NCBI GenBank assembly: GCA_043803225.1
Contig: JAZDKF010000047.1
Location: 1 to 55,593 of the forward strand
DNA length: 55,593 bases
Reading direction: 5' to 3'
Source: Candidatus Beckwithbacteria bacterium
GTDB lineage: Bacteria > Patescibacteriota > Microgenomatia > UBA1400 > CG1-02-47-37
The translations under genes were made by a program, and so were the position numbers. The notes under the pieces were generated by a model. It had not been told where the DNA came from. It did not search any database and was given only the letters and a program-made list of their open reading frames with translations. Positions within the stretch are counted from its first letter, which is position 1, and each line of letters opens with the position of its first letter. Positions 4,771-49,342 of the stretch are shown here, piece by piece.

Positions 4771-5364
4771 TTATAACATATCTTGGGAGCTAATAGTGAC
4801 CGTTTTAACAATGATAGGAGTAATTGGTTTTGATTTTTCTCCAGTTGAATTAGCGGTGACTGCGGCGGTGGCGATTTTATCAACTGTGTCCAAACCGGCA
4901 ATTACCTGACCGAAGATAACGTAATTTTTAGGCAGGGGGTTGGCCTGGTGCATAATAAAAAACTGAGAACCATTAGTATTAGGACCAGAATTGGCCATAG
5001 CCACAGCCCCGCGGATATAGTCACCGGAAAACGGTTCATCGTCAAACTTATAACCAGGCCCGCCAGTACCGTCACCCTGAGGATCGCCGCCTTGAATCAT
5101 AAAGCCATTAATAATCCGATGAAAGATAGTTTGGTCATAAAAACCTTTTTCAGCCAAAGAAATAAAGTTTTTGGCAGTAATTGGAGTATCTTTAGTATTT
5201 AAGCGGATCACAATATCTCCGAGATCGGTTTGCAGAGTAGCACTATATATTTTTAGTGAAGCTGTGGGAATTGAGGTTTGAGAATTGTTAGTTATTTGTT
5301 TAATTAAAAATAACCCGACGGCAATCGCGGCTAATAAAACTATTAGAATTTTAGTATTATTCAT
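4771..5364 (-). CDS. ppiA: Cyclophilin-type peptidyl-prolyl cis-trans isomerase with N-terminal membrane anchor
   Basis: FHRIINGFMIQGGDP, AMANSGPNTNGSQFFI. Confidence 0.9.
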   Translation of the reverse strand: MNNTKILIVLLAAIAVGLFLIKQITNNSQTSIPTASLKIYSATLQTDLGDIVIRLNTKDTPITAKNFISLAEKGFYDQTIFHRIINGFMIQGGDPQGDGTGGPGYKFDDEPFSGDYIRGAVAMANSGPNTNGSQFFIMHQANPLPKNYVIFGQVIAGLDTVDKIATAAVTANSTGEKSKPITPIIVKTVTISSQDML

Positions 5365-20829: not shown

Positions 20830-21652
20830 TTGTAGAGATATCAGCTTGAGCGAGAATGGTATTTTTTGCAGGTAAGAGTTGAGAGTGGTAGGTGGGTTTT
20901 TCTTGTTTGTAAAAGATACCAATTGGAAGCTTGTCAGTTTCTAAAGCTTTAGTTAAAGCTGCCTGAAAATCAGCTGGATTATGGTTGACTGATTTTAGAT
21001 CATAGCTGTTTTTTCGATACCAGTCATAAGGCAGGTTTTGATTATAAGTAACGCAGGGTTGAAGAAGATCAACGAAAGCAAAGCCTGGGTGAGTTATAGC
21101 GGCTTTAATAATTTGAGCCAGCTCGGGAATGTTGCCAGCAAAGCCGCGGCTAACAAAAGACGCATGATTAACTAAAGCAGTAGCTAAAGGGTTAAAAGCT
21201 TCTTCCAAAGAACCGTTAGGAGTACTGGGAGTAACAGTTCCCTTTTTACTAGTCGGTGACATTTGGCCAGTAGTCAAGCTATAGAGATAGTTGTTATAGC
21301 TGAGAACCACAATGTCATGGTTACCGCGAGCGGCAGCAATAAAGTGAGATATGCCTTCGCCAAAGCAACCACCATCACCAATAATGGCAATGACCGGTAA
21401 TTTTGAATTGGCTAATTTAATGCCAGCGGCAACCGGCAAAGCCCGGCCATGCAAACCATGAAAGCCATAGCTATAAAAAAAGTCAGCCAAGTTACTGGAA
21501 CAGCCAATATCATAAACAAGGGCAAGTTCATGAGATTGAATATTCAGTTGATCTAAAGCCAACTTAATGGCACCAAAAATACCGAAATTGCCGCACCCCG
21601 GACACCAGGTTGGATTAACAGTTGTGGTTCGTTTTATTGATTGTCTAGTCAT
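20807..21652 (-). CDS. 2-oxoacid:ferredoxin oxidoreductase beta subunit (TPP-binding)
   Basis: WCPGCG, DIGCS, HGRALP, GDGG..EG, YSLTTGQMSPTS, QPCVTYN. Confidence 0.93.
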   Translation of the reverse strand: MTRQSIKRTTTVNPTWCPGCGNFGIFGAIKLALDQLNIQSHELALVYDIGCSSNLADFFYSYGFHGLHGRALPVAAGIKLANSKLPVIAIIGDGGCFGEGISHFIAAARGNHDIVVLSYNNYLYSLTTGQMSPTSKKGTVTPSTPNGSLEEAFNPLATALVNHASFVSRGFAGNIPELAQIIKAAITHPGFAFVDLLQPCVTYNQNLPYDWYRKNSYDLKSVNHNPADFQAALTKALETDKLPIGIFYKQEKPTYHSQLLPAKNTILAQADISTISLAEIF

Positions 21653-23250
21653 ATCGATTTTACTTTTGCAATAATTTCTTCGGGAAAAAAGGGACGGCCA
21701 TCATATTTTAGGATTTGGGATTCTATCTTAATTCCAGTTTCTTTTTGAATTAATTGATTTAATTGGCCAGTGGAGTTAGCTTCTAAAGTAATTAATTTTT
21801 TTGATGATTTTATAAGGCGTAAAAATTCTGATTGAGGGAAGGGAAAAACCCACGAAAAGTGAATAAAGTTGGTATCAGGAAGCGAGTCAAGGGCAGTTAA
21901 GCAACTACCTTTGTTTGAGCCCCAGGAAATAACGGTTTTAACAGCGTTTTGAGGTCCGTAAAGAGTGGGTTTGACCATATCTGAATCAGAGAGCAAGGTA
22001 ATTAGTTTTTTAGCTCGCTTGTTAACCTGCTTGATTCTTGTCTCTGATACTTCGGTAGCATAACCTAAAGTATCATGCTCATAACTATTAGCCAAATGAA
22101 TTCCACCTGATTGACCGGGCAAGGAACGAAGAGAAACGCCTGTATCAGTAACCGCGTAACGATGAAAAGGAGTTTGGTTGTCTATAGCCGTAGTATTGGC
22201 GATCCCAAAACGTTGATTATTATGGTTCGTTTCAGGCTGAGTAAAAGTAAAGTAGGATTCGGCTAAATATTTGTCAGTTAAAATAATTACCGGCAGTTGA
22301 TATTTTTCTGCCAGATTTTGAGCTAACTTTGCCAATATAAAAGCTTCCTGAGGATCGCCAGGCGCCAGAACGATTCGAGGAAATTCATCCTGAGATGCAT
22401 GAATGCAAAATAAAAGATCACCTTGACCTGTCCAGGTAGGCATACCTGAGGCCGGACCAGGCCGCATAGCATCAACAATGACAAGCGGAGTTTCGGAAAC
22501 TCCAGCTAAACCTAGACATTCAGTCATTAAAGAAAATCCACCGCCTGATGTAGCCACCATGGTTCTCGCTCCAGCAAAACTAGCTCCAAGTGCCATATTA
22601 ACTACACCAATTTCATCTTCTCCCTGCCGGACGGCTAAGTTAGCTTTTAGAGCCTTTGAAGCTAAAAAGTGAAGGATAGAAGTAGCTGGAGTCATTGGAT
22701 AAGCGCTAAAAAACTTCATGCCGCCGGCAATAGCGCCTAAACTTAAAGCCTCATTACCGGTTAAAAATATTTGGTTAGATAAGCTGACTGATGGTAATGG
22801 TTTTAAAATTTTATTAAAACGTTTGGAGTTGGTTTTATACCCAAATTCAGCCGCCTTTTGGTTTTCTTTAATGACAACTTTTGATTTTTTTGAAAAGGTT
22901 TTAGCAATAGTTGAAGTTAAAATTGAAAGATCTAGGTTAAAAAATGCAGCGGAAAAGCCAAGAGCGACCATATTTTTTGACTTTGAATTAAGATGATTTT
23001 CCTGGCAGATTTTTAAAAAAAGAGGATCAGATGTGGACACTTCAAGATCAGTCAGATTTGAGGCGGAAAGAACAGGTTTTAAATCAGCCGTCAGCTGAAA
23101 AGTATTAGTGCCACCCCGAATTAATGAAGGGTATTCAGTATAACCATGAACATAAAGACCGTGCTGAAAACAGGTAGAAGCCATGATCAGACCACTAATT
23201 TTAATACCTTCCCCGGCCGAGCCAATCATTTTCCAATTAAACTTTGGCAT
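21649..23250 (-). CDS. 2-oxoacid:ferredoxin oxidoreductase alpha subunit (gamma-alpha fusion)
   Basis: GSAGEG, YPSLIRGG, YPMTPAT, EDEIG, TSGGGFSLM, RPGPASG; TG-G-TATGCT 7 nt before ATG 23250. Confidence 0.93.
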   Translation of the reverse strand: MPKFNWKMIGSAGEGIKISGLIMASTCFQHGLYVHGYTEYPSLIRGGTNTFQLTADLKPVLSASNLTDLEVSTSDPLFLKICQENHLNSKSKNMVALGFSAAFFNLDLSILTSTIAKTFSKKSKVVIKENQKAAEFGYKTNSKRFNKILKPLPSVSLSNQIFLTGNEALSLGAIAGGMKFFSAYPMTPATSILHFLASKALKANLAVRQGEDEIGVVNMALGASFAGARTMVATSGGGFSLMTECLGLAGVSETPLVIVDAMRPGPASGMPTWTGQGDLLFCIHASQDEFPRIVLAPGDPQEAFILAKLAQNLAEKYQLPVIILTDKYLAESYFTFTQPETNHNNQRFGIANTTAIDNQTPFHRYAVTDTGVSLRSLPGQSGGIHLANSYEHDTLGYATEVSETRIKQVNKRAKKLITLLSDSDMVKPTLYGPQNAVKTVISWGSNKGSCLTALDSLPDTNFIHFSWVFPFPQSEFLRLIKSSKKLITLEANSTGQLNQLIQKETGIKIESQILKYDGRPFFPEEIIAKVKSI

Positions 23251-23287
23251 AAATAACAGCATACCATAATTGATAATTTTCGTTAAT

Positions 23288-23310
23288 CCTACAAGGAGAC
23301 TCCTTGTAGG
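23288..23310. repeat. REP-1 copy upstream of RAYT1
   Basis: CCTACAAGGAGACTCCTTGTAGG, perfect 11-1-11 palindrome. Confidence 0.9.
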
Positions 23311-23327
23311 TGTATAATTAACAAATA

Positions 23328-23966
23328 ATGCCTTCGAAAAACACGTTAAAACAATATATAGAGGATAGCTATTATCATATATATAATCGTGGAGTTAATA
23401 AGGAGCGGATTTTTTTAGATGATCAAGATTATAAAACCTTTCTTAGATACCTTAAAATGTATTTATCGTTATCTGACCTACAAGGAGACTCCTTGAAGGT
23501 AAAAGTAGCGCCCTCAAGACAGTTAAAAAATTACACTGATCAAATTAAGTTAATTGCTTATTGTTTGCTTCCTAATCACTTTCATTTATTAATCTGGCAG
23601 AATGAATTTGATAAAATTAATTTTTTTATGCGATCGTTAGCGACCAAATACGCAAGATATTTTAATCGTAAATATCATCGAGTTGGACCTGTTTTCCAAA
23701 GCGTTTATAAAGCTGTTCTTGTAGAAAGTGAGGATCAATTACTTTATTTAACCAAGTATATTCATCGCAATCCAATTGAATTATTACCTACGAGGAGTCT
23801 CCTTGTAGGTTACAAATACTCAAGCTATGGTAATTATTTGAATTTATTTAATCAAGTTTGGGTTAAACCATTAGATTTTATAAACAAATCTTATAAAACA
23901 TTTGTTGAAGAAACAGATGAACGTGACTTATTAACAATAAAGTCGGTGTTAATTGAAGAAATTTAG
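23328..23966 (+). CDS. REP-associated tyrosine transposase (RAYT, Y1/IS200-like)
   Basis: YYHIYNRG, AYCLLPNHFHLL (HUH), YIHRNP (catalytic Tyr), YSSY. Confidence 0.92.
   Translation: MPSKNTLKQYIEDSYYHIYNRGVNKERIFLDDQDYKTFLRYLKMYLSLSDLQGDSLKVKVAPSRQLKNYTDQIKLIAYCLLPNHFHLLIWQNEFDKINFFMRSLATKYARYFNRKYHRVGPVFQSVYKAVLVESEDQLLYLTKYIHRNPIELLPTRSLLVGYKYSSYGNYLNLFNQVWVKPLDFINKSYKTFVEETDERDLLTIKSVLIEEI
23477..23499. repeat. REP-1 copy inside RAYT1 CDS
   Basis: CCTACAAGGAGACTCCTTGAAGG. Confidence 0.85.
23787..23809. repeat. REP-1 copy inside RAYT1 CDS (reverse orientation)
   Basis: CCTACGAGGAGTCTCCTTGTAGG. Confidence 0.85.
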
Positions 23967-23989
23967 CCTGCAAGGAGACTCCTTGTAGG
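23967..23989. repeat. REP-1 copy abutting the RAYT1 stop codon
   Basis: CCTGCAAGGAGACTCCTTGTAGG. Confidence 0.85.
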
Positions 23990-23996
23990 CTGTTAT

Positions 23997-24677
23997 ATGG
24001 GTGAACTTTATTTAGTATCAACGCCGATCGGTAATCGTCAGGACATTACTCTTCGAGCCTTGTCAGTTTTAACAAATCTTGATTATCTGCTTTGTGAAGA
24101 TACTAGAAAAACTAAGCAGCTGCTGAATTTCTACAATTTGTCTCACTTACCGGAACTGATTAGTTTTTATGAAGAAAATGAACAGATACGGCAAACTCAA
24201 GTAGTAGGTTGGTTAAAAGAAGGCAAAAAAATCGGCTTGGTTTCTAATGCCGGTACGCCATTAATTTCTGATCCGGGATATAAATTAGTAAGAGAGTGCA
24301 TTAAAGAAAAAATTCCAGTAAACAATCTCCCTGGAGCCAATGCCATACTGGCAAGTTTAGTCGTTTCAGGACTACCTCCTGACAAGTTTATGTTTTTAGG
24401 ATTTTTACCGAAAAAAGAAAGAAAAAAAAGCCAGCTGTTGGAAAATGTTAAAGTAATTTTAGAGCGTTTACCTCAAACAGTAATTATTTATGAATCTCCT
24501 TACCGAGTAGTTAAAACTTTGTTGTTAATTAAGACTATAATGCATAAAGCTCAAATAGTGGTTTGCCGGGAGTTGACTAAAAAGTTTGAAACCATATACC
24601 GCGGCGAAGCTGAAAAAGTTTTAAAACAGTTGGGAGACAAAAAACTTAAAGGTGAAGTGGTGATTTTATTTCACTAA
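23997..24677 (+). CDS. rsmI: 16S rRNA (cytidine-2'-O)-methyltransferase
   Basis: LYLVSTPIGN..DIT.RA, CEDTR, SNAGTPLISDPG, YESPYR, CRELTKKFE. Confidence 0.93.
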   Translation: MGELYLVSTPIGNRQDITLRALSVLTNLDYLLCEDTRKTKQLLNFYNLSHLPELISFYEENEQIRQTQVVGWLKEGKKIGLVSNAGTPLISDPGYKLVRECIKEKIPVNNLPGANAILASLVVSGLPPDKFMFLGFLPKKERKKSQLLENVKVILERLPQTVIIYESPYRVVKTLLLIKTIMHKAQIVVCRELTKKFETIYRGEAEKVLKQLGDKKLKGEVVILFH

Positions 24678-44598: not shown

Positions 44599-47500
44599 TT
44601 ATACCTTAAAAGGCTTCAAAATGCTAGTAATTTCTTTTTTTATTACGTTAAAATTAATCGGATAAGGAAGGGTGATTGTTCTAGTTTCGCCGCCGTTAAT
44701 TAATTTTAAAGTGATTATGTCATTGCCGGGATTGGATTGGAAAAGCTGATTTAAACTGACTAAAATATCTTTAGGAGTCGATTGTTTGATTTCCAAAGTA
44801 ATTTCTTGAGACTTTTCGGTTGTCTTTTCATTAATAGATTCCAGTTTAGACGAAGGGTTAACCGCCGAATCTACAATCAGAGTTAAACGGTCTTTAATAT
44901 CAACTTTACCAGTGACTAAAATCGGTTGATCATTAATCCAGGAAGATTTAGTTGAAGCATAAAGCTTGGGGAAAATTACAAGTTCAATCGACCCGGTATC
45001 ATCTTCCAGATTAGCAAAGGCCATCTCCTGATTAGATTTTTTAGTAACAATTATCTTTAAGCCTTTAATAATGCCGCCAATTGTAACAGTCTTGTGAACG
45101 TGAAGCTTTGGATCCAGTTCACCGATTTGATGAGAAACTAAAGATTTTAATTGTTCCAAAGATTTAGCTAAGGGATGTTCGGTTAAGTAAAAACCCAGCA
45201 GTTGTTTTTCAAAGCTTAATAAATCAATTTTGCTAAATTCTTCAGCTTCGGCCAGCTTATCAATGGCTTCAGTTTTCTGAGTGTCTGAACCGGAAAACAT
45301 GGAGACCTGCGGGCTGTTTTGAATTTTTTGCGCTTCAGCGGCTTTTTGCCTAATGTCTTCAAGAGATAATAATAATTGGCTTCTTTTGGCAAAAGCATCA
45401 AAAGCACCAACCTGAATTAAACTTTCTAAAACTTTTTTATTCACCTTTTGTTGGTCAATCCGTTGGCAAAAATCAGTAAAAGAAGAAAAAAACTTTTTAG
45501 TCCTGGCTTTAATAATCGCCTCAATCGCGGCTTCACCGACATTTTTTATCGCTGACAAACCAAAAACAATTGCCTGATCATTTAAGGAAGTTTTATCTTT
45601 AATAATAGTAAAGCCAATACAGGAACGGTTAATATCCGGTGGATAAACTTTAATCTTCATTCGTTTAGCTTCGGCAATTGCCAGGGGAATTTTGTCCTTG
45701 TCGTTTGATTCAGCTGATAGAAGAGCAGCCATAAATTCAACTGGATAATGAGCTTTCATATAGGCAGTTTGGTAAGAGATCATGGCATAAGCCGTGGCGT
45801 GCGCTTTGTTAAAACCATAACCAACAAATTTTTCGATATAACCCCAAACCCGTTCAGCCACTTCCCGGTTATACCCTTTTTCTCGGGATTGTTGAATAAA
45901 CTTGGTTCTTTCTTTGGTCATTAAAACCCGCTTTTTTTTACCGATTGCCCGGCGTAAAATATCCGCCTCACCCAGAGTGTAACCGGCCATAACATTAGCA
46001 ATTTGCAGAGCTTGTTCCTGGTACACCGCAATCCCGTAAGTTTCAGCCAAGACCGGTTTTAAGTCCTCATGAGGATATTTAATTGAGGATGGATTTTTTT
46101 TACCAGAAATAAAATCGTCGATTAAGTCCATTGGCCCTGGCCGATAAAGAGCCACCATAGCGGTAATATCAGAAAATCGATTAGGAAGAAGTTTTTTGGC
46201 AACTGAACGCATACCGCCTGATTCGAGCTGGAATATCCCAATGGTATGACCTAAACTTAATAATTTATAGACAGCCGGATCGTCAAGAGGAATTTCTGAC
46301 ATATCGACTTTAGGTTTGCCTTGTTCAGTGACAAAATTTATGGCATTCTGAAGCGTAGTTAGATTTCGCAGTCCCAGAAAGTCGATTTTCAGCAAACCAA
46401 TCGCATCAGCATCAATATTACAATCAAGCGAATACATGTCGTATTGGGTCATGATCCGTTCATTTTTTGATTCAAGCTGAAGCGGAGTATACTCAGTCAA
46501 GGGCTTGTCACCGATAACGACACCGGCGGCGTGGGTTGAAGCGTGCCTGGCAGTTCCTTCAACTTTTTTAGCTAAATTAATCAGTTCTTTAAATTCAGGC
46601 TGACTATAGTATTCCTGAAGTTCCTGGCTGTTAATCAAGGCTTCTTCAATACTAAAGCCATAAGGAATCAATTTTGAAATCTTGTCAGGTTCAGAGTAAG
46701 GCATGCCTAAAACCCGGCCAATATCCCGAATGGCACCTTTAGCTTCCATACTGCCGAAAGTAATAATTTGGGCAACCCGGTCTTTGCCATATTTTTCGGC
46801 CACATAGTGAATGACTTCATCCCGGCGGTCATCAGCAAAATCCAGATCAATATCTGGCGGGCTGGGACGTTCAGGATTCATAAACCGTTCAAAAGGGATG
46901 TTGTGCTCGATCGGATCGATGGTGGTAATTCTTAAAGAAAATGCCACCAAAGAACCGGCAACACTACCCCGGCCGGGACCAACCCGAATCTTATGTTGTT
47001 TAGCCCAGTTAACAAAGTCCTGAACAATTAAAAAATAGGTGGCAAAACCTTTGTCACAAATAATTTTAAGTTCATACTTCAGCCTTTTTTCCAGTTCAGG
47101 AGTAATTTTGGCAAAACGTTTTTTCAAGCCTTGAATAGCTAAAAATTCCAGATAGTTTTCAGATTTTTTAAAACCTTTAGGCAAAGTAAAATTCGGGAGA
47201 ATCCATTTCCCGGTCGGAATAGTGACATTGCATTTATCGGCAATTTTAACTGAATTATTTAAAGCATCAGGCAAGTCAGGAAAAAGTTGTTTCATTTCTT
47301 CAGCGGACTTTAAGTAATAATCTGGCGAGTTAATCATTGAGAGTCGATTAGCATCAGAAAGAACGGTCTTGGTTTGAATTGCCAATAAAGCATCCTGAGC
47401 TTTGGCATCAGCTTTAGTCACATAGTGCAGATCATTAGTAGCGACAAGCGGAATTCCCAGCTGACGGGAAAACTCAATTAGTTTTTGATTGACTTTTTTC

Positions 47501-48048
47501 AATTCAGGGATACCCTGGTGAATCTGAAGTTCCAAGTAAAAGTCGTCTTGAAACAGTTTTTGAAAATATTGACAGTACTTTATGGCTTCTTTGTCATTGT
47601 TGTCCAGGATCATTTGAGGAATTAAACCCTGAATACAGGAAGAGGTGGCGATTAAACCTTCTGAATATTTTTCTAAAGCTTTAAAATCAAATCGGGGACG
47701 ATAGTAGTAGCCTTCCAAATTAGCTAAGGTAGTTAAGCGCATTAGATTTTGGTAACCAATAAAGTTTTTAGCCAGGAACAGCTGATGATAGGTTTGTTTC
47801 TGAGCACCAGGAGATTTGTCATGGCAGTCAAGAGTTGTCAGATAACCTTCGATACCGATAATCGGTTTGATACCGGCTTTTTTAGCCGCATTATGAAATT
47901 TAACGGCGCCATACATCACCCCGTGATCGGTAATAGCGATGGCTTTCATCTTCAACTCAATTACCCGTTTAATCAGCTCGTCAAGTTTACATAAACCATC
48001 CAAAAGTGAGTATTGAGTATGAACATGAAGATGAACAAAATCAGTCAT
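44599..48048 (-). CDS. dnaE: DNA polymerase III alpha subunit
   Basis: PHP HLHVH, GRGS, PDIDLDF, KIDFLGL, YGFNKAH, OB-fold. Confidence 0.98.
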   Translation of the reverse strand: MTDFVHLHVHTQYSLLDGLCKLDELIKRVIELKMKAIAITDHGVMYGAVKFHNAAKKAGIKPIIGIEGYLTTLDCHDKSPGAQKQTYHQLFLAKNFIGYQNLMRLTTLANLEGYYYRPRFDFKALEKYSEGLIATSSCIQGLIPQMILDNNDKEAIKYCQYFQKLFQDDFYLELQIHQGIPELKKVNQKLIEFSRQLGIPLVATNDLHYVTKADAKAQDALLAIQTKTVLSDANRLSMINSPDYYLKSAEEMKQLFPDLPDALNNSVKIADKCNVTIPTGKWILPNFTLPKGFKKSENYLEFLAIQGLKKRFAKITPELEKRLKYELKIICDKGFATYFLIVQDFVNWAKQHKIRVGPGRGSVAGSLVAFSLRITTIDPIEHNIPFERFMNPERPSPPDIDLDFADDRRDEVIHYVAEKYGKDRVAQIITFGSMEAKGAIRDIGRVLGMPYSEPDKISKLIPYGFSIEEALINSQELQEYYSQPEFKELINLAKKVEGTARHASTHAAGVVIGDKPLTEYTPLQLESKNERIMTQYDMYSLDCNIDADAIGLLKIDFLGLRNLTTLQNAINFVTEQGKPKVDMSEIPLDDPAVYKLLSLGHTIGIFQLESGGMRSVAKKLLPNRFSDITAMVALYRPGPMDLIDDFISGKKNPSSIKYPHEDLKPVLAETYGIAVYQEQALQIANVMAGYTLGEADILRRAIGKKKRVLMTKERTKFIQQSREKGYNREVAERVWGYIEKFVGYGFNKAHATAYAMISYQTAYMKAHYPVEFMAALLSAESNDKDKIPLAIAEAKRMKIKVYPPDINRSCIGFTIIKDKTSLNDQAIVFGLSAIKNVGEAAIEAIIKARTKKFFSSFTDFCQRIDQQKVNKKVLESLIQVGAFDAFAKRSQLLLSLEDIRQKAAEAQKIQNSPQVSMFSGSDTQKTEAIDKLAEAEEFSKIDLLSFEKQLLGFYLTEHPLAKSLEQLKSLVSHQIGELDPKLHVHKTVTIGGIIKGLKIIVTKKSNQEMAFANLEDDTGSIELVIFPKLYASTKSSWINDQPILVTGKVDIKDRLTLIVDSAVNPSSKLESINEKTTEKSQEITLEIKQSTPKDILVSLNQLFQSNPGNDIITLKLINGGETRTITLPYPINFNVIKKEITSILKPFKV

Positions 48049-48090: not shown

Positions 48091-48113
48091 CCTACAGGGT
48101 CGGACCTTGTAGG
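48091..48113. repeat. REP-2 copy upstream of RAYT2
   Basis: CCTACAGGGTCGGACCTTGTAGG. Confidence 0.9.
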
Positions 48114-48128
48114 TATATAATAAGATTT

Positions 48129-48779
48129 ATGCCGGCGAAGAACGTAGTTAAAGAATTTTATCCTGACGCATATTATCATATTTATAATCGAGGCGTAGCT
48201 AAACAGACTATTTTTATTGATGAACAAGATTATAAATCCTTTCTTTCTTATCTTAAAATTTATCTTTCCTCAATCGATAAATCCATAAAAGTCTCCCCTT
48301 CCAGAAAATTAAAAAATTATTTTCAGAAACTACGCTTGTTGGCTTATTGTCTTATGCCAAACCATTTTCATTTGTTTATTTGGCAAGAGAATAAAAATTC
48401 AATTAGTGAATTTATGCAATCGATTTTAACCAAGTATTCCATGTATTTTAATAAAAAATACAAACGAATCGGCCCTGTTTTCCAAGGTAAATATAAAGCA
48501 GTAAGAATCGTGTCTGAAAATCAGTTTACTTATTTATCAAAGTATCTTCATCGCAACCCTTTTCAAATTCTGCCTACAGGGTCGGACCTTGAAGGTTACA
48601 AATACTCAAGTTATCAAAATTATCTGAGAAAATTTAGCCAATCTTGGTTAGATATAAATGAGATTTTAAATTATTTTTCTAAAACTAAAACGTTTAATTC
48701 TTATAAAAACTTTGTTGAAGAAATTGATGAGACTGATTTACTAAGAATAAAAAACTTGGTCCTTGATTTAGATTTCTAA
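48129..48779 (+). CDS. REP-associated tyrosine transposase (RAYT) 2
   Basis: YYHIYNRG, AYCLMPNHFHLF, YLHRNP, YSSY. Confidence 0.92.
   Translation: MPAKNVVKEFYPDAYYHIYNRGVAKQTIFIDEQDYKSFLSYLKIYLSSIDKSIKVSPSRKLKNYFQKLRLLAYCLMPNHFHLFIWQENKNSISEFMQSILTKYSMYFNKKYKRIGPVFQGKYKAVRIVSENQFTYLSKYLHRNPFQILPTGSDLEGYKYSSYQNYLRKFSQSWLDINEILNYFSKTKTFNSYKNFVEEIDETDLLRIKNLVLDLDF
48573..48595. repeat. REP-2 copy inside RAYT2 CDS
   Basis: CCTACAGGGTCGGACCTTGAAGG. Confidence 0.85.
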
Positions 48780-49342
48780 CCTACAGGGTCGGACCCTGTA
48801 GGTTGGTGTAGGTTGTAAAGCAGAAAATTATAAACATCTTTTAAAACTTTTAATTCCTGCTGTTTTTGGTTTAGCCAGGCCTCTTTACCTCCACGTTTAT
48901 CAGGACTAAAAACTAATGCCTGCAATCCTTCCCTAGCAGCAGTAACTTGCCCTTGTGAAGCAAAGCAGCCGACTTCAACCCAAGGCTCGATATTGTCTTC
49001 ATTGACAATCGCATGAGCTATTATAAATGACCAAGGAAAATTGTTTCTTTCTAATCTCAAGGTAATTGTTCTGGCAACATCATCTTCAGATATGGGCGAG
49101 CAGGCAAAATAAAATCTGGTTATTTCTTCTGGCTGAAAGGTAAATTCAGGTTGAAAAACCCGTTTAAGATTTTCCGGCATTCTGTTCCAATCTATCAGAT
49201 CTTCGTTTGTACTTAATTCCACTAGCCCATCTGTTATTTTACCGAGTCCAGAAAAAACTTGCTTGACTTCTTGGACAATAGACTCCCTACCAGCGCTTAT
49301 CTCTTGATCCGACAATTGTTTTTCTACGAAAACAGACCCCAT
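48776..49342 (-). CDS. Hypothetical protein
   Basis: 188 aa ORF with AAGGA SD; last codons encoded by REP-2. Confidence 0.7.
   Translation of the reverse strand: MGSVFVEKQLSDQEISAGRESIVQEVKQVFSGLGKITDGLVELSTNEDLIDWNRMPENLKRVFQPEFTFQPEEITRFYFACSPISEDDVARTITLRLERNNFPWSFIIAHAIVNEDNIEPWVEVGCFASQGQVTAAREGLQALVFSPDKRGGKEAWLNQKQQELKVLKDVYNFLLYNLHQPTGSDPVG
48780..48802. repeat. REP-2 copy abutting the RAYT2 stop codon
   Basis: CCTACAGGGTCGGACCCTGTAGG, perfect 11-1-11 palindrome. Confidence 0.9.

Follow-up and report, generated by a model that had tools for sequence, protein, structure and literature searches.

Of the systems that pair a Y1 transposase-like protein with repetitive extragenic palindromes (REPs), the nearest known to the one described here is subclass 2.4 of the REP-associated tyrosine transposases, variously called RAYT or TnpA-REP proteins (Quentin, Siguier, Chandler, and Fichant 2018; group 4 of Bertels), which is found in Cyanobacteria, Bacteroidetes, Caldilineae, and others. 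Its key motifs are NH[IFV]H, WQ, and YIxNNP, its tnpA-REP genes carry REPs inserted in-frame, generally between the histidine-hydrophobic-histidine (HUH) and tyrosine (Tyr) motifs, and some of its REPs are “double-foot” palindromes with the foot 5′-GTAG...CTAC-3′ (Quentin et al. 2018). REPs have also been reported inside genes of several species, including truB, in a study that recalls the in-frame Rickettsia palindromic elements (RPEs) (Di Nocera et al. 2013, PMC3733652). The subject of this paper is a RAYT-like gene, RAYT1, together with the 23-nt palindrome CCTACAAGGAGACTCCTTGTAGG that lies around and inside it, in a 55.6-kb stretch of DNA (the window) from a Candidatus Beckwithbacteria bacterium (contig JAZDKF010000047.1).

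Patescibacteria, to which this bacterium belongs, are usually held to be poor in mobile DNA, and in the open-access text searched we found no literature on a RAYT or in-frame REP system in them. To our knowledge, the copying of REPs and the matching between REPs and RAYTs have stayed unresolved for four decades, and REP transposition has never been directly shown. At the locus considered here and in its relatives, the palindrome copies in one genome change in step with each other. We consider it highly probable that the locus is a RAYT/REP system with in-frame cognate REPs. The full statement, for which our confidence is moderate but on the favourable side, is that it constitutes a REPtron, made of a vertically inherited RAYT and a cognate 23–27-nt CTNC-stem-loop-stem-GNAG palindrome, with copies that are kept in-frame and replaced in place.

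Palindromes that follow their own RAYT gene

The four copies of CCTACAAGGAGACTCCTTGTAGG begin at positions 23288, 23477, 23787, and 23967 and are named here by their place: upstream (U), internal 1 (I1), internal 2 (I2), and downstream (D); being palindromes, they are listed without a strand. The U copy (23288..23310) is a perfect 11-1-11 palindrome that ends 2 nt before a −10-like box and has a counterpart in most relatives. I1 (23477..23499), with one mismatch to U, begins at codon position 3 and is translated as (D)LQGDSLK(V), while I2 (23787..23809), with two mismatches, begins at codon position 1, is translated as (L)PTRSLLVG, and lies between the Tyr-motif helix and a conserved YKYSSY motif. 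The first base of D (23967..23989, one mismatch) directly follows the TAG stop codon (23964-23966), which is overlapped by the extended stem of this copy (AGCCTGC.../...GTAGGCT). An earlier reading of the letters alone, the sequence-only reading, had described these four copies, two of them translated and one just upstream of the −10 box, and all were found as described. When up to three mismatches were allowed, no further copy of CCTACAAGGAGACTCCTTGTAGG was found in the whole window (chance expectation 0), and palindromes of the RAYT-linked class occupy only seven sites in it, four at RAYT1 and three at its paralog RAYT2.

Folded as single-stranded DNA (ssDNA), each of the four copies forms a stable hairpin whichever strand is taken; the free energies, similar for the two strands, range from −6 to −10.8 kcal/mol and the z-scores from −3.2 to −5.6. 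The palindrome foot, G[TAC]AG, stands on the 3′ side, base-paired with a 5′ CTNC within the stem; the RAYT1 palindrome lacks the GT[AG]G foot that is expected of a REP on the 5′ side of its hairpin. The polarity CTAC...GTAG, already noticed in the sequence-only reading, is indeed the reverse of that of published REPs, the “double-foot” REPs of subclass 2.4 included.

RAYT1 itself (23328..23966, plus strand) encodes a 212-aa homolog of Y1/HUH single-strand DNA nucleases/transposases. The Pfam model Y1_Tnp (PF01797) matches it with 31.8 bits (cutoff 23) over residues 71-148 only; the HUH motif H84-F-H86 is encoded at 23577-23585 (NHFH, residues 83-86), and the catalytic-type Tyr144, at 23757-23759, opens the Tyr motif YIHRNP (residues 144-149). 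H84, H86, and Y144 are invariant in an alignment of 22 homologs and are retained in distant relatives too; within the Tyr motif Y144, H146, R147, and N148 are invariant among the 22 and P149 is conserved in at least 90%. YIHRNP fits the form Y---NP, which is the signature of class 2 (RAYT) (Quentin et al. 2018). A fold search with the AlphaFold model placed 4ER8_A at the top (E = 8.9e-7, target-normalised TM-score 0.65), ahead of the TnpA proteins of IS608 and ISDra2. 4ER8 is E. coli TnpA-REP in complex with a REP hairpin. At the sequence level, RAYT1 aligns over its full length with a RAYT-like protein of Calothrix (35% identity, E = 1e-36), to which a Chloroflexota member of the family is 51% identical, and relatives carry the RayT annotation; the motifs of the Calothrix protein, NHYH and YIHLNP, give it no clear placement in subclass 2.4. 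The NCBIfam model transpos_IS200 scores 16 bits against RAYT2, with a cutoff of 55. By sequence and model, RAYT1 is thus best described as a class-2 TnpA-Y1 RAYT-like protein of a Patescibacteria-specific clade, with predicted ssDNA binding and cleavage, and the earlier identification of the gene as a RAYT agrees with Pfam, with the best NCBIfam model, and with the fold match.

More than 2000 full-length homologs of RAYT1 exist, nearly all in Patescibacteria and chiefly in Beckwithbacteria and other Microgenomates, and the family has at least 582 loci in the species genomes of GTDB. Many metagenome-assembled genomes (MAGs) with a Patescibacteria-type gene and neighbours (e.g., loci L004, L013, L017, and L018) are publicly labelled “uncultured Pseudomonadales”, “uncultured Gammaproteobacteria”, or “uncultured Thermoproteales archaeon”, which are probably taxonomic mislabels in third-party annotation (TPA) assemblies.

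The evidence that carries our reading comes from a palindrome scan of 80 family loci. Most relatives that are ∼50% identical or more have copies at the same four positions, namely about −27 to −60 from the ATG, +160, +470, and around a centre 12 nt beyond the stop codon; in more distant members there are usually just the two flanking copies. The palindromes themselves, compared as 21-mers, differ from locus to locus (28 loci yielded 28 distinct palindromes), and within each locus the same sequence stands at all positions, so that an internal copy differs from its own flank at 0.99 of 21 nt and from the flanks of other loci at 7.53 of 21. A second, detection-free test set the internal regions by protein alignment alone and compared them, along with three control coding regions, with the flank of the same locus: 22 of 33 loci had no more than two mismatches to their own flank at each internal site, and the controls never fell below eight. 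The change can be followed among syntenic orthologs, where nearly all copies read CCTCG and all four copies of the window read CCTTG, which turns the I1 peptide from SSQ into SLK. Such in-place co-variation suggests that hairpins may be replaced under the action of the RAYT. At one locus (L001), copies first taken as orphans belong to a RAYT homolog encoded on the opposite strand, of which they form the U, I1, and I2 sites.

The same relation holds between paralogs. RAYT2 (48129..48779, plus strand), a 216-aa paralog 55–56% identical to RAYT1, carries a palindrome of its own, CCTACAGGGTCGGACCYTGTAGG, at the U, I2, and D positions, again listed without strand. Its U copy (48091..48113), with the sequence CCTACAGGGTCGGACCTTGTAGG, which is different from that of RAYT1, adjoins TATATAAT; its I2 copy (48573..48595), translated as PTGSDLEG, has the position and codon phase of the RAYT1 I2 and its own palindrome sequence; and its D copy (48780..48802) is a perfect palindrome directly after the TAA stop. 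An I1 site is missing from RAYT2, which is 4–5 aa shorter there. With the RAYT1 gene flanked by its own hairpins and each paralog in possession of its own REP family, the arrangement is that of a REPtron. Many genomes hold two to four divergent paralogs at different places, and the identity between paralogs of one genome ranges from 31 to 67% and never exceeds 67%. Single MAGs contain up to four RAYT paralogs (31–61% identical), each with its own palindrome, as in CAYGFS01 (L020, L026, L027, and L066); CAZRUW01 (L041, L046, and L047) likewise has several, two of which, at L047, are ∼2 kb apart.

As for the surroundings of RAYT2, it is neighboured by a dnaE-like gene (44599-48048, minus strand) and by a minus-strand open reading frame (ORF) (48776-49342) that overlaps RAYT2 and ends within the D hairpin, its terminal residues PTGSDPVG being encoded by the palindrome. 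At other RAYT loci the copies are clustered: L004 (4651-4700) has two in tandem past the stop codon, the flanks of L070 (Saccharibacteria) have five in alternating orientation, two upstream and three downstream, and L031 (4730-4765) has an inverted palindrome dimer. These clusters resemble the arrangements known as bacterial interspersed mosaic elements (BIMEs) or REP doublets forming hairpins (REPINs).

Copies within reading frames, in RAYT genes and beyond

The two translated copies behave differently with respect to the reading frame. In 31 of 32 loci the I1 palindrome starts on the third base of a codon. The I2 palindrome starts on the first base in 19 loci and on the second in 9, the phase differing between subclades, so that one DNA element encodes peptides either of the PTRSLLVG or of the AYKESPRR type. 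The palindrome is stop-free in two of the three phases, and in all three when its foot is GAAG or GCAG. In the window the 3′ foot of I1 is GAAG, not GTAG; in the phase of I1 a GTAG foot would create an in-frame TAG, and across loci such a foot is found in 0 of 32 copies at I1 and in 30 of 111 at the other three sites. The sequence-only reading had made this point for the single copy of the window, and it holds across the loci.

Both peptides coincide with the two internal segments of the model in which the predicted local distance difference test score (pLDDT) is below 50 and coil is predicted (residues 50-59 and 149-161). Compared with relatives of 190–192 aa from Chloroflexota, Cyanobacteria, and Planctomycetota, I1 lies within an insertion of ∼25 aa that is specific to the candidate phyla radiation (CPR), and I2 stands where the non-CPR relatives have a linker of the same length. 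That the internal copies are maintained by DNA-level selection or copying, and not by peptide conservation, is supported by the locus-specific co-variation, by the three codon phases in which they are read, and by the lack of structure in both peptides.

In the 8-kb flanks of RAYT loci we found 9 stray copies in 449 kb. Scans of the window and of these flanks first suggested that the palindromes are private to the gene, a view overturned by genome and metagenome scans. In the complete 1.05-Mb Beckwithbacteria genome CP011210 the RAYT-cognate palindrome is present three times at the RAYT gene and seven times elsewhere, and since this amounts to ∼1 copy per 150 kb, zero dispersed copies in a 55-kb window says little about the rest of its genome. 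A metagenome scan with the palindrome class of the window matched more than 120 stretches. Among the matches listed were 112 sites in 80 loci, 32 of which lie within or beside a RAYT gene, and for 77 the locus contains no such gene; 62 of the 102 evaluable sites among these matches were within long open frames, and 22 further ones were at contig ends, which fits expectation because repeats break assemblies. The earlier claim that no copies occur away from the gene consequently stands for the 55.6-kb window and falls for related genomes (CP011210 and the metagenomes). It had been added that a palindrome widespread and unlinked to RAYT genes would refute the proposal: in relatives the palindromes are indeed widespread and for the most part away from RAYT genes, although each variant still tracks its cognate RAYT.

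The genes that host such copies are often housekeeping genes. Host frames were confirmed by Pfam as MiaA, GatA, TruB, and Obg, and recognised by eye as a GT39-like membrane protein and an aminopeptidase, and the peptides written by the palindrome in host proteins are HLQGLSLKV, PARSLLAG, and ACEESPRR, among others. In-frame repeats within intact conserved genes are thus seen in relatives; in the window they occur only in RAYT genes. The in-frame hosts of CP011210.1 (L098, L105, L106, L107, L109, L110, and L102) comprise MiaA, an O-antigen-ligase-like membrane protein, GatA, TruB, and others; at L110 a 589-aa frame contains PSRINPEG twice, from two palindrome copies.

How the copies came to sit in these frames differs from case to case. 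In the GatA of CP011210 the palindrome peptide fills a variable linker whose length is the same as in orthologs, and the SLKG arm is already conserved in GatA, so that simple insertion does not account for every in-gene copy. Other hosts carry 2–8 extra residues at the palindrome, and patterns of insertion and of replacement both occur; for some hosts a 75%-identical ortholog has no copy and is 2 aa shorter. At one orthologous host-gene site CP011210 has CCTTCAAGGTTTATCCTTGAAGG and a 58%-identical ortholog has CCTACGAGGAGACTCCTTGCAGG, with flanks and frame alike. The concerted behaviour is therefore a property of the whole repeat family and not of the RAYT gene alone.

In a third ortholog (L134, ∼5150-5190) one arm is duplicated over 9 nt (CCTACGAGG-CCTACGAGGAG...), which lengthens the protein by the three residues LRG and is possibly a footprint of the copying mechanism. 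Two further orthologous host sites, L102 (∼600-680) and L180 (∼5080-5125), contain ∼1.8 tandem copies each, with a variant of its own in each genome. The variant at L102, AAGGAGAGTCCTT, is unlike the palindrome cognate to the known RAYT of CP011210, which implies a second REP family in that genome and probably a second RAYT.

Proposed in-place replacement and its alternatives

If RAYT1 works as the TnpA-REP of E. coli and the TnpA of IS608 do, it would bind the palindrome hairpin on ssDNA at the replication fork, and would cut and rejoin the DNA beside it. In gene-dense genomes the only copies to survive would be those that keep the frame and lie in tolerant loops, and two loops of the enzyme itself would qualify. 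Existing copies would then be repeatedly swapped in place for the current version of the hairpin, either by exchange of units between sites or by reinsertion at hairpin-like targets, and such replacement would preserve length and frame and keep the copies matched to the enzyme. This step of hairpin replacement we put forward only tentatively, with a confidence that falls well short of that in the system as a whole. Finally, the place of U beside the −10 box may give the protein a means to sense its promoter or to repress it. Of all the steps, this autoregulation has the least support, because the spacing varies and because the in-place behaviour is not specific to RAYT genes.

Several points weigh against this mechanism or against parts of it. 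Binding or cutting of the hairpin by the protein is argued from the E. coli enzyme, whose recognition of a single-stranded 5′ GTAG cannot simply be assumed for a foot that is reversed and paired in the stem. The best NCBIfam model, REP_Tyr_transpos (NF047646), gives the two paralogs 41 and 42.8 bits, yet its cutoff is 80; a sequence-level search of the PDB with RAYT1 gave no match, the link to TnpA-REP coming from the fold search alone, and the AlphaFold model behind the fold match is of moderate quality (mean pLDDT 74). Dispersal is seen in genomes other than that of the window, and among the metagenome copies the cognate RAYT is known for a minority. The types of mismatch (G-T vs A-C), used as a test of which strand folds, were 32 and 47 and did not differ significantly (p = 0.11), a skew at I1 being probably a coding effect. 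Lastly, hot-spot insertion repeated independently, or ordinary gene conversion, could yield the same pattern.

The alternative that survives best, although we judge it improbable, is that the copies are mainly regulatory: the protein would bind its own promoter as well as hairpins of the coding strand or mRNA, and selection for autoregulation would keep the four copies matched. The region upstream of RAYT1 invites this view. A −10-like box, TATAAT, was read from the sequence at 23313..23318 (plus strand), 9 nt before the ATG, and a TATAMT-like box 8–12 nt ahead of the ATG is conserved across relatives, where it often abuts the U hairpin; at L010 and L022 the extended U stem takes in the box itself. 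I1 and I2, moreover, hold fixed positions over a large clade, and the copies change in concert among orthologs. However, the in-place co-variation also affects orthologous sites in unrelated host genes, so that no mechanism peculiar to the RAYT gene has to be invoked, which argues against a role confined to that gene, whether the autoregulation or the self-cleavage suggested in the sequence-only reading. Many family members, moreover, keep an intact gene without I1, without I2, or without either, and in different relatives U stands anywhere between 0 and about 35 nt from the −10 box and the ATG, sometimes after the promoter. A generic terminator scan called nothing at the RAYT1 locus and a search of Rfam gave no relevant match.

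The promoter itself is a candidate placed at TATAAT by position, as a generic promoter scan made no call at the junction of U and the −10 box and a −35 match is absent. If it is used, the position of the box implies that the RAYT1 mRNA would be leaderless or near-leaderless and the U hairpin untranscribed. A Shine-Dalgarno-like sequence is absent at 23319-23330 and in relatives, and in most family members a −10-like box lies 8–12 nt before the ATG, which suggests leaderless or near-leaderless mRNAs for the RAYT gene family.

Slightly less probable again is a reading in which the ∼700-bp block is an autonomous, IS200-like mini-transposon with the outer hairpins as its ends and the internal copies as extra or accidental sites of the transposase. 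The genomic locus bears on this directly. RAYT1 lies between a subunit of 2-oxoacid:ferredoxin oxidoreductase (OFOR; 21649-23262, minus strand) and an rsmI-like methyltransferase gene (23997-24677), the ATG of which (23997) follows the end of D by 7 nt. A search for empty sites anchored on the OFOR protein returned four loci, two of which are empty sites in more distant relatives: the gap between rsmI and OFOR is there ∼20 nt (L094) or ∼100 nt (L096), with no gene, hairpin, or footprint between. Since rsmI and OFOR are adjacent in these relatives, the ∼700-bp hairpin-bounded block, which the sequence-only reading had proposed as a compact element, is the unit once gained or lost. This history, the hairpins that closely bracket the ORF in nearly all relatives, and the two to four paralogs at different places of one genome are what a mini-transposon would leave, and the movement or loss of rsmI beside the gene in L090 and L091 is in keeping with one.

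The case against it is nevertheless the stronger. The order OFOR, RAYT, rsmI, and ADP-forming acetyl-CoA synthetase is kept in orthologs of 75–86% identity, so that orthologs down to 75% identity occupy one locus, and the copies within a genome, at 67% identity or less, differ from those of IS200, which are ∼99% identical (Quentin 2018, Table 1). Both ends share one palindrome instead of having distinct left and right hairpins, the Tyr motif is Y---NP (class 2) and not the Y---Q of IS200, and the items that are dispersed are solo hairpins, not whole units. The syntenic orthologs and the divergence of the paralogs give no sign of recent mobility of the 700-bp unit. RAYT1 accordingly behaves as a domesticated, vertically inherited RAYT and not as an active insertion sequence (IS), because its orthologs are syntenic and recent within-genome duplicates are lacking. 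In L090 and L091 the rsmI-like gene beside the RAYT locus has been moved upstream in one case and lost in the other, with OFOR and the acetyl-CoA synthetase in place, a local rearrangement right beside the hairpin-bounded block.

A further possibility, which we consider unlikely, is that REPs entered tolerant loops on one or a few occasions and have simply been inherited since, the internal copies being relics that match the flanks as a result of recent insertion. In-frame REP insertions in many genes, tnpA-REP included, have been documented and read as tolerated, the peptides of RAYT1 fall in disordered loops, and some relatives are shorter at these sites, as empty sites would be. On the other hand, the same residue positions are occupied in paralogs and genera only 50–60% identical, each with its own variant, which would take a very large number of independent insertions at exactly these positions, or else updating in place. 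Furthermore, the four copies share derived changes among syntenic orthologs, and the GatA copy is a replacement of the same length. As for the idea that the palindromes are operators of an unrelated dimeric double-stranded DNA-binding protein, or a chance result of conserved peptides, a perfect 23-bp dyad symmetry is typical of operators, and DLQGxSLKV and LPxRxLLxG look conserved in a protein alignment, but we regard it as very improbable, given that the palindrome differs per paralog and tracks the adjacent RAYT gene, that copies are read in three phases and lie within many unrelated ORFs, and that control coding regions never resemble the flank palindrome.

Returning to in-place replacement by the RAYT, its most specific form would be that the enzyme also rewrites copies where they stand, cutting on both sides of the double-footed palindrome and swapping the 23-nt cassette between sites on ssDNA; we offer this as a doubtful proposal, worth stating for what it would entail. 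If true, every copy would keep its length and frame and follow the specificity of the enzyme, in housekeeping proteins as in the enzyme itself, very short repeats would be homogenised without homologous recombination, and the co-evolution of REP families and RAYTs would be explained.

The most interesting result is the base-by-base evidence of concerted, in-place REP evolution, which makes the mechanism of REP copying testable. The RAYT clade is a clean natural experiment, with a tiny near-perfect repeat, few copies per ∼1-Mb genome, and fixed, alignable sites in conserved proteins, including the gene of the enzyme itself. With thousands of metagenomic genomes to compare, replacement, insertion, and decay can be distinguished at the level of single bases. 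Where one genome has two paralogs with unlike hairpins, biochemistry gains a built-in control of specificity. Patescibacteria, then, carry an active-looking RAYT/REP system that writes peptides of ∼8 aa into housekeeping proteins.

Comparison with known systems

With the IS200/IS605 TnpA proteins (IS200, IS608, and ISDra2) RAYT1 shares the fold and the catalytic motifs, and with IS200 also the compact ∼700-bp unit of equal size with hairpins near both ends. It differs in its Tyr motif and its length (212 aa vs about 150 aa), in having identical palindromes at its ends in place of distinct left-end and right-end hairpins, and in that its clade has a stable chromosomal position and lacks near-identical within-genome copies. 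On these features RAYT1 stands outside the IS200/IS605 TnpA proteins (subclass 1.1).

The E. coli REPtron with its TnpA-REP (YafM, PDB 4ER8) is the top structural match, and it too has a gene bracketed by palindromic hairpins and is of the domesticated, vertically inherited, single-copy type, although RAYT1 is only ∼14% identical to it in sequence. Its REPs form imperfect hairpins with a bulge and leave a 5′ GTAG single-stranded; they are present in hundreds, intergenic, and arranged in BIMEs or REPINs, whereas the palindromes of the RAYT1 clade are short, near-perfect, few per genome, mostly intragenic, and mostly solitary.

The RPEs and intragenic REPs (Di Nocera et al. 2013) resemble these palindromes in lying in-frame in intact housekeeping genes, truB being a recurrent host. 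RPEs are, however, about 100–150 bp long and have no known cognate transposase; the unit of the RAYT1 clade has 23 nt (∼8 aa), its cognate RAYT is present, and its orthologous sites follow the variant of each genome.

Subclass 2.4 comes closest. Compared by motifs, both have a class-2 Y1/HUH protein with NH[IFV]H (NHFH here) and WQ; both have few copies per genome, divergent paralogs, and a gene flanked by cognate REPs; REPs lie within the tnpA-REP ORF with the frame kept; and some REPs are perfect palindromes with the foot in the stem and with GTAG/GAAG variants, as in GTAGGGGCGAAAAATTTTTCGCCCCTAC of Caldilinea. The differences are equally definite. The internal copies of the RAYT1 clade lie before the HUH motif, in the clade-specific insertion, and just after the Tyr motif, at sites that are clade-wide; the foot is reversed, 5′-CTNC...GNAG-3′ vs 5′-GTAG...CTAC-3′; the Tyr motif is YIHRNP vs YIxNNP; the REP is very short (23 nt); and the hosts are Patescibacteria, essentially missing from the 2018 survey. 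The departure from classical RAYT systems that the sequence-only reading had seen in the intragenic copies cannot be maintained, in-frame REPs having been published in 2018 for tnpA-REP genes and in 2013 for other genes; a RAYT with REPs inside its own reading frame is already known. What appears to be new is the Patescibacteria clade, its reversed CTNC...GNAG foot, and the in-place co-variation at fixed sites, those in orthologous host genes included.

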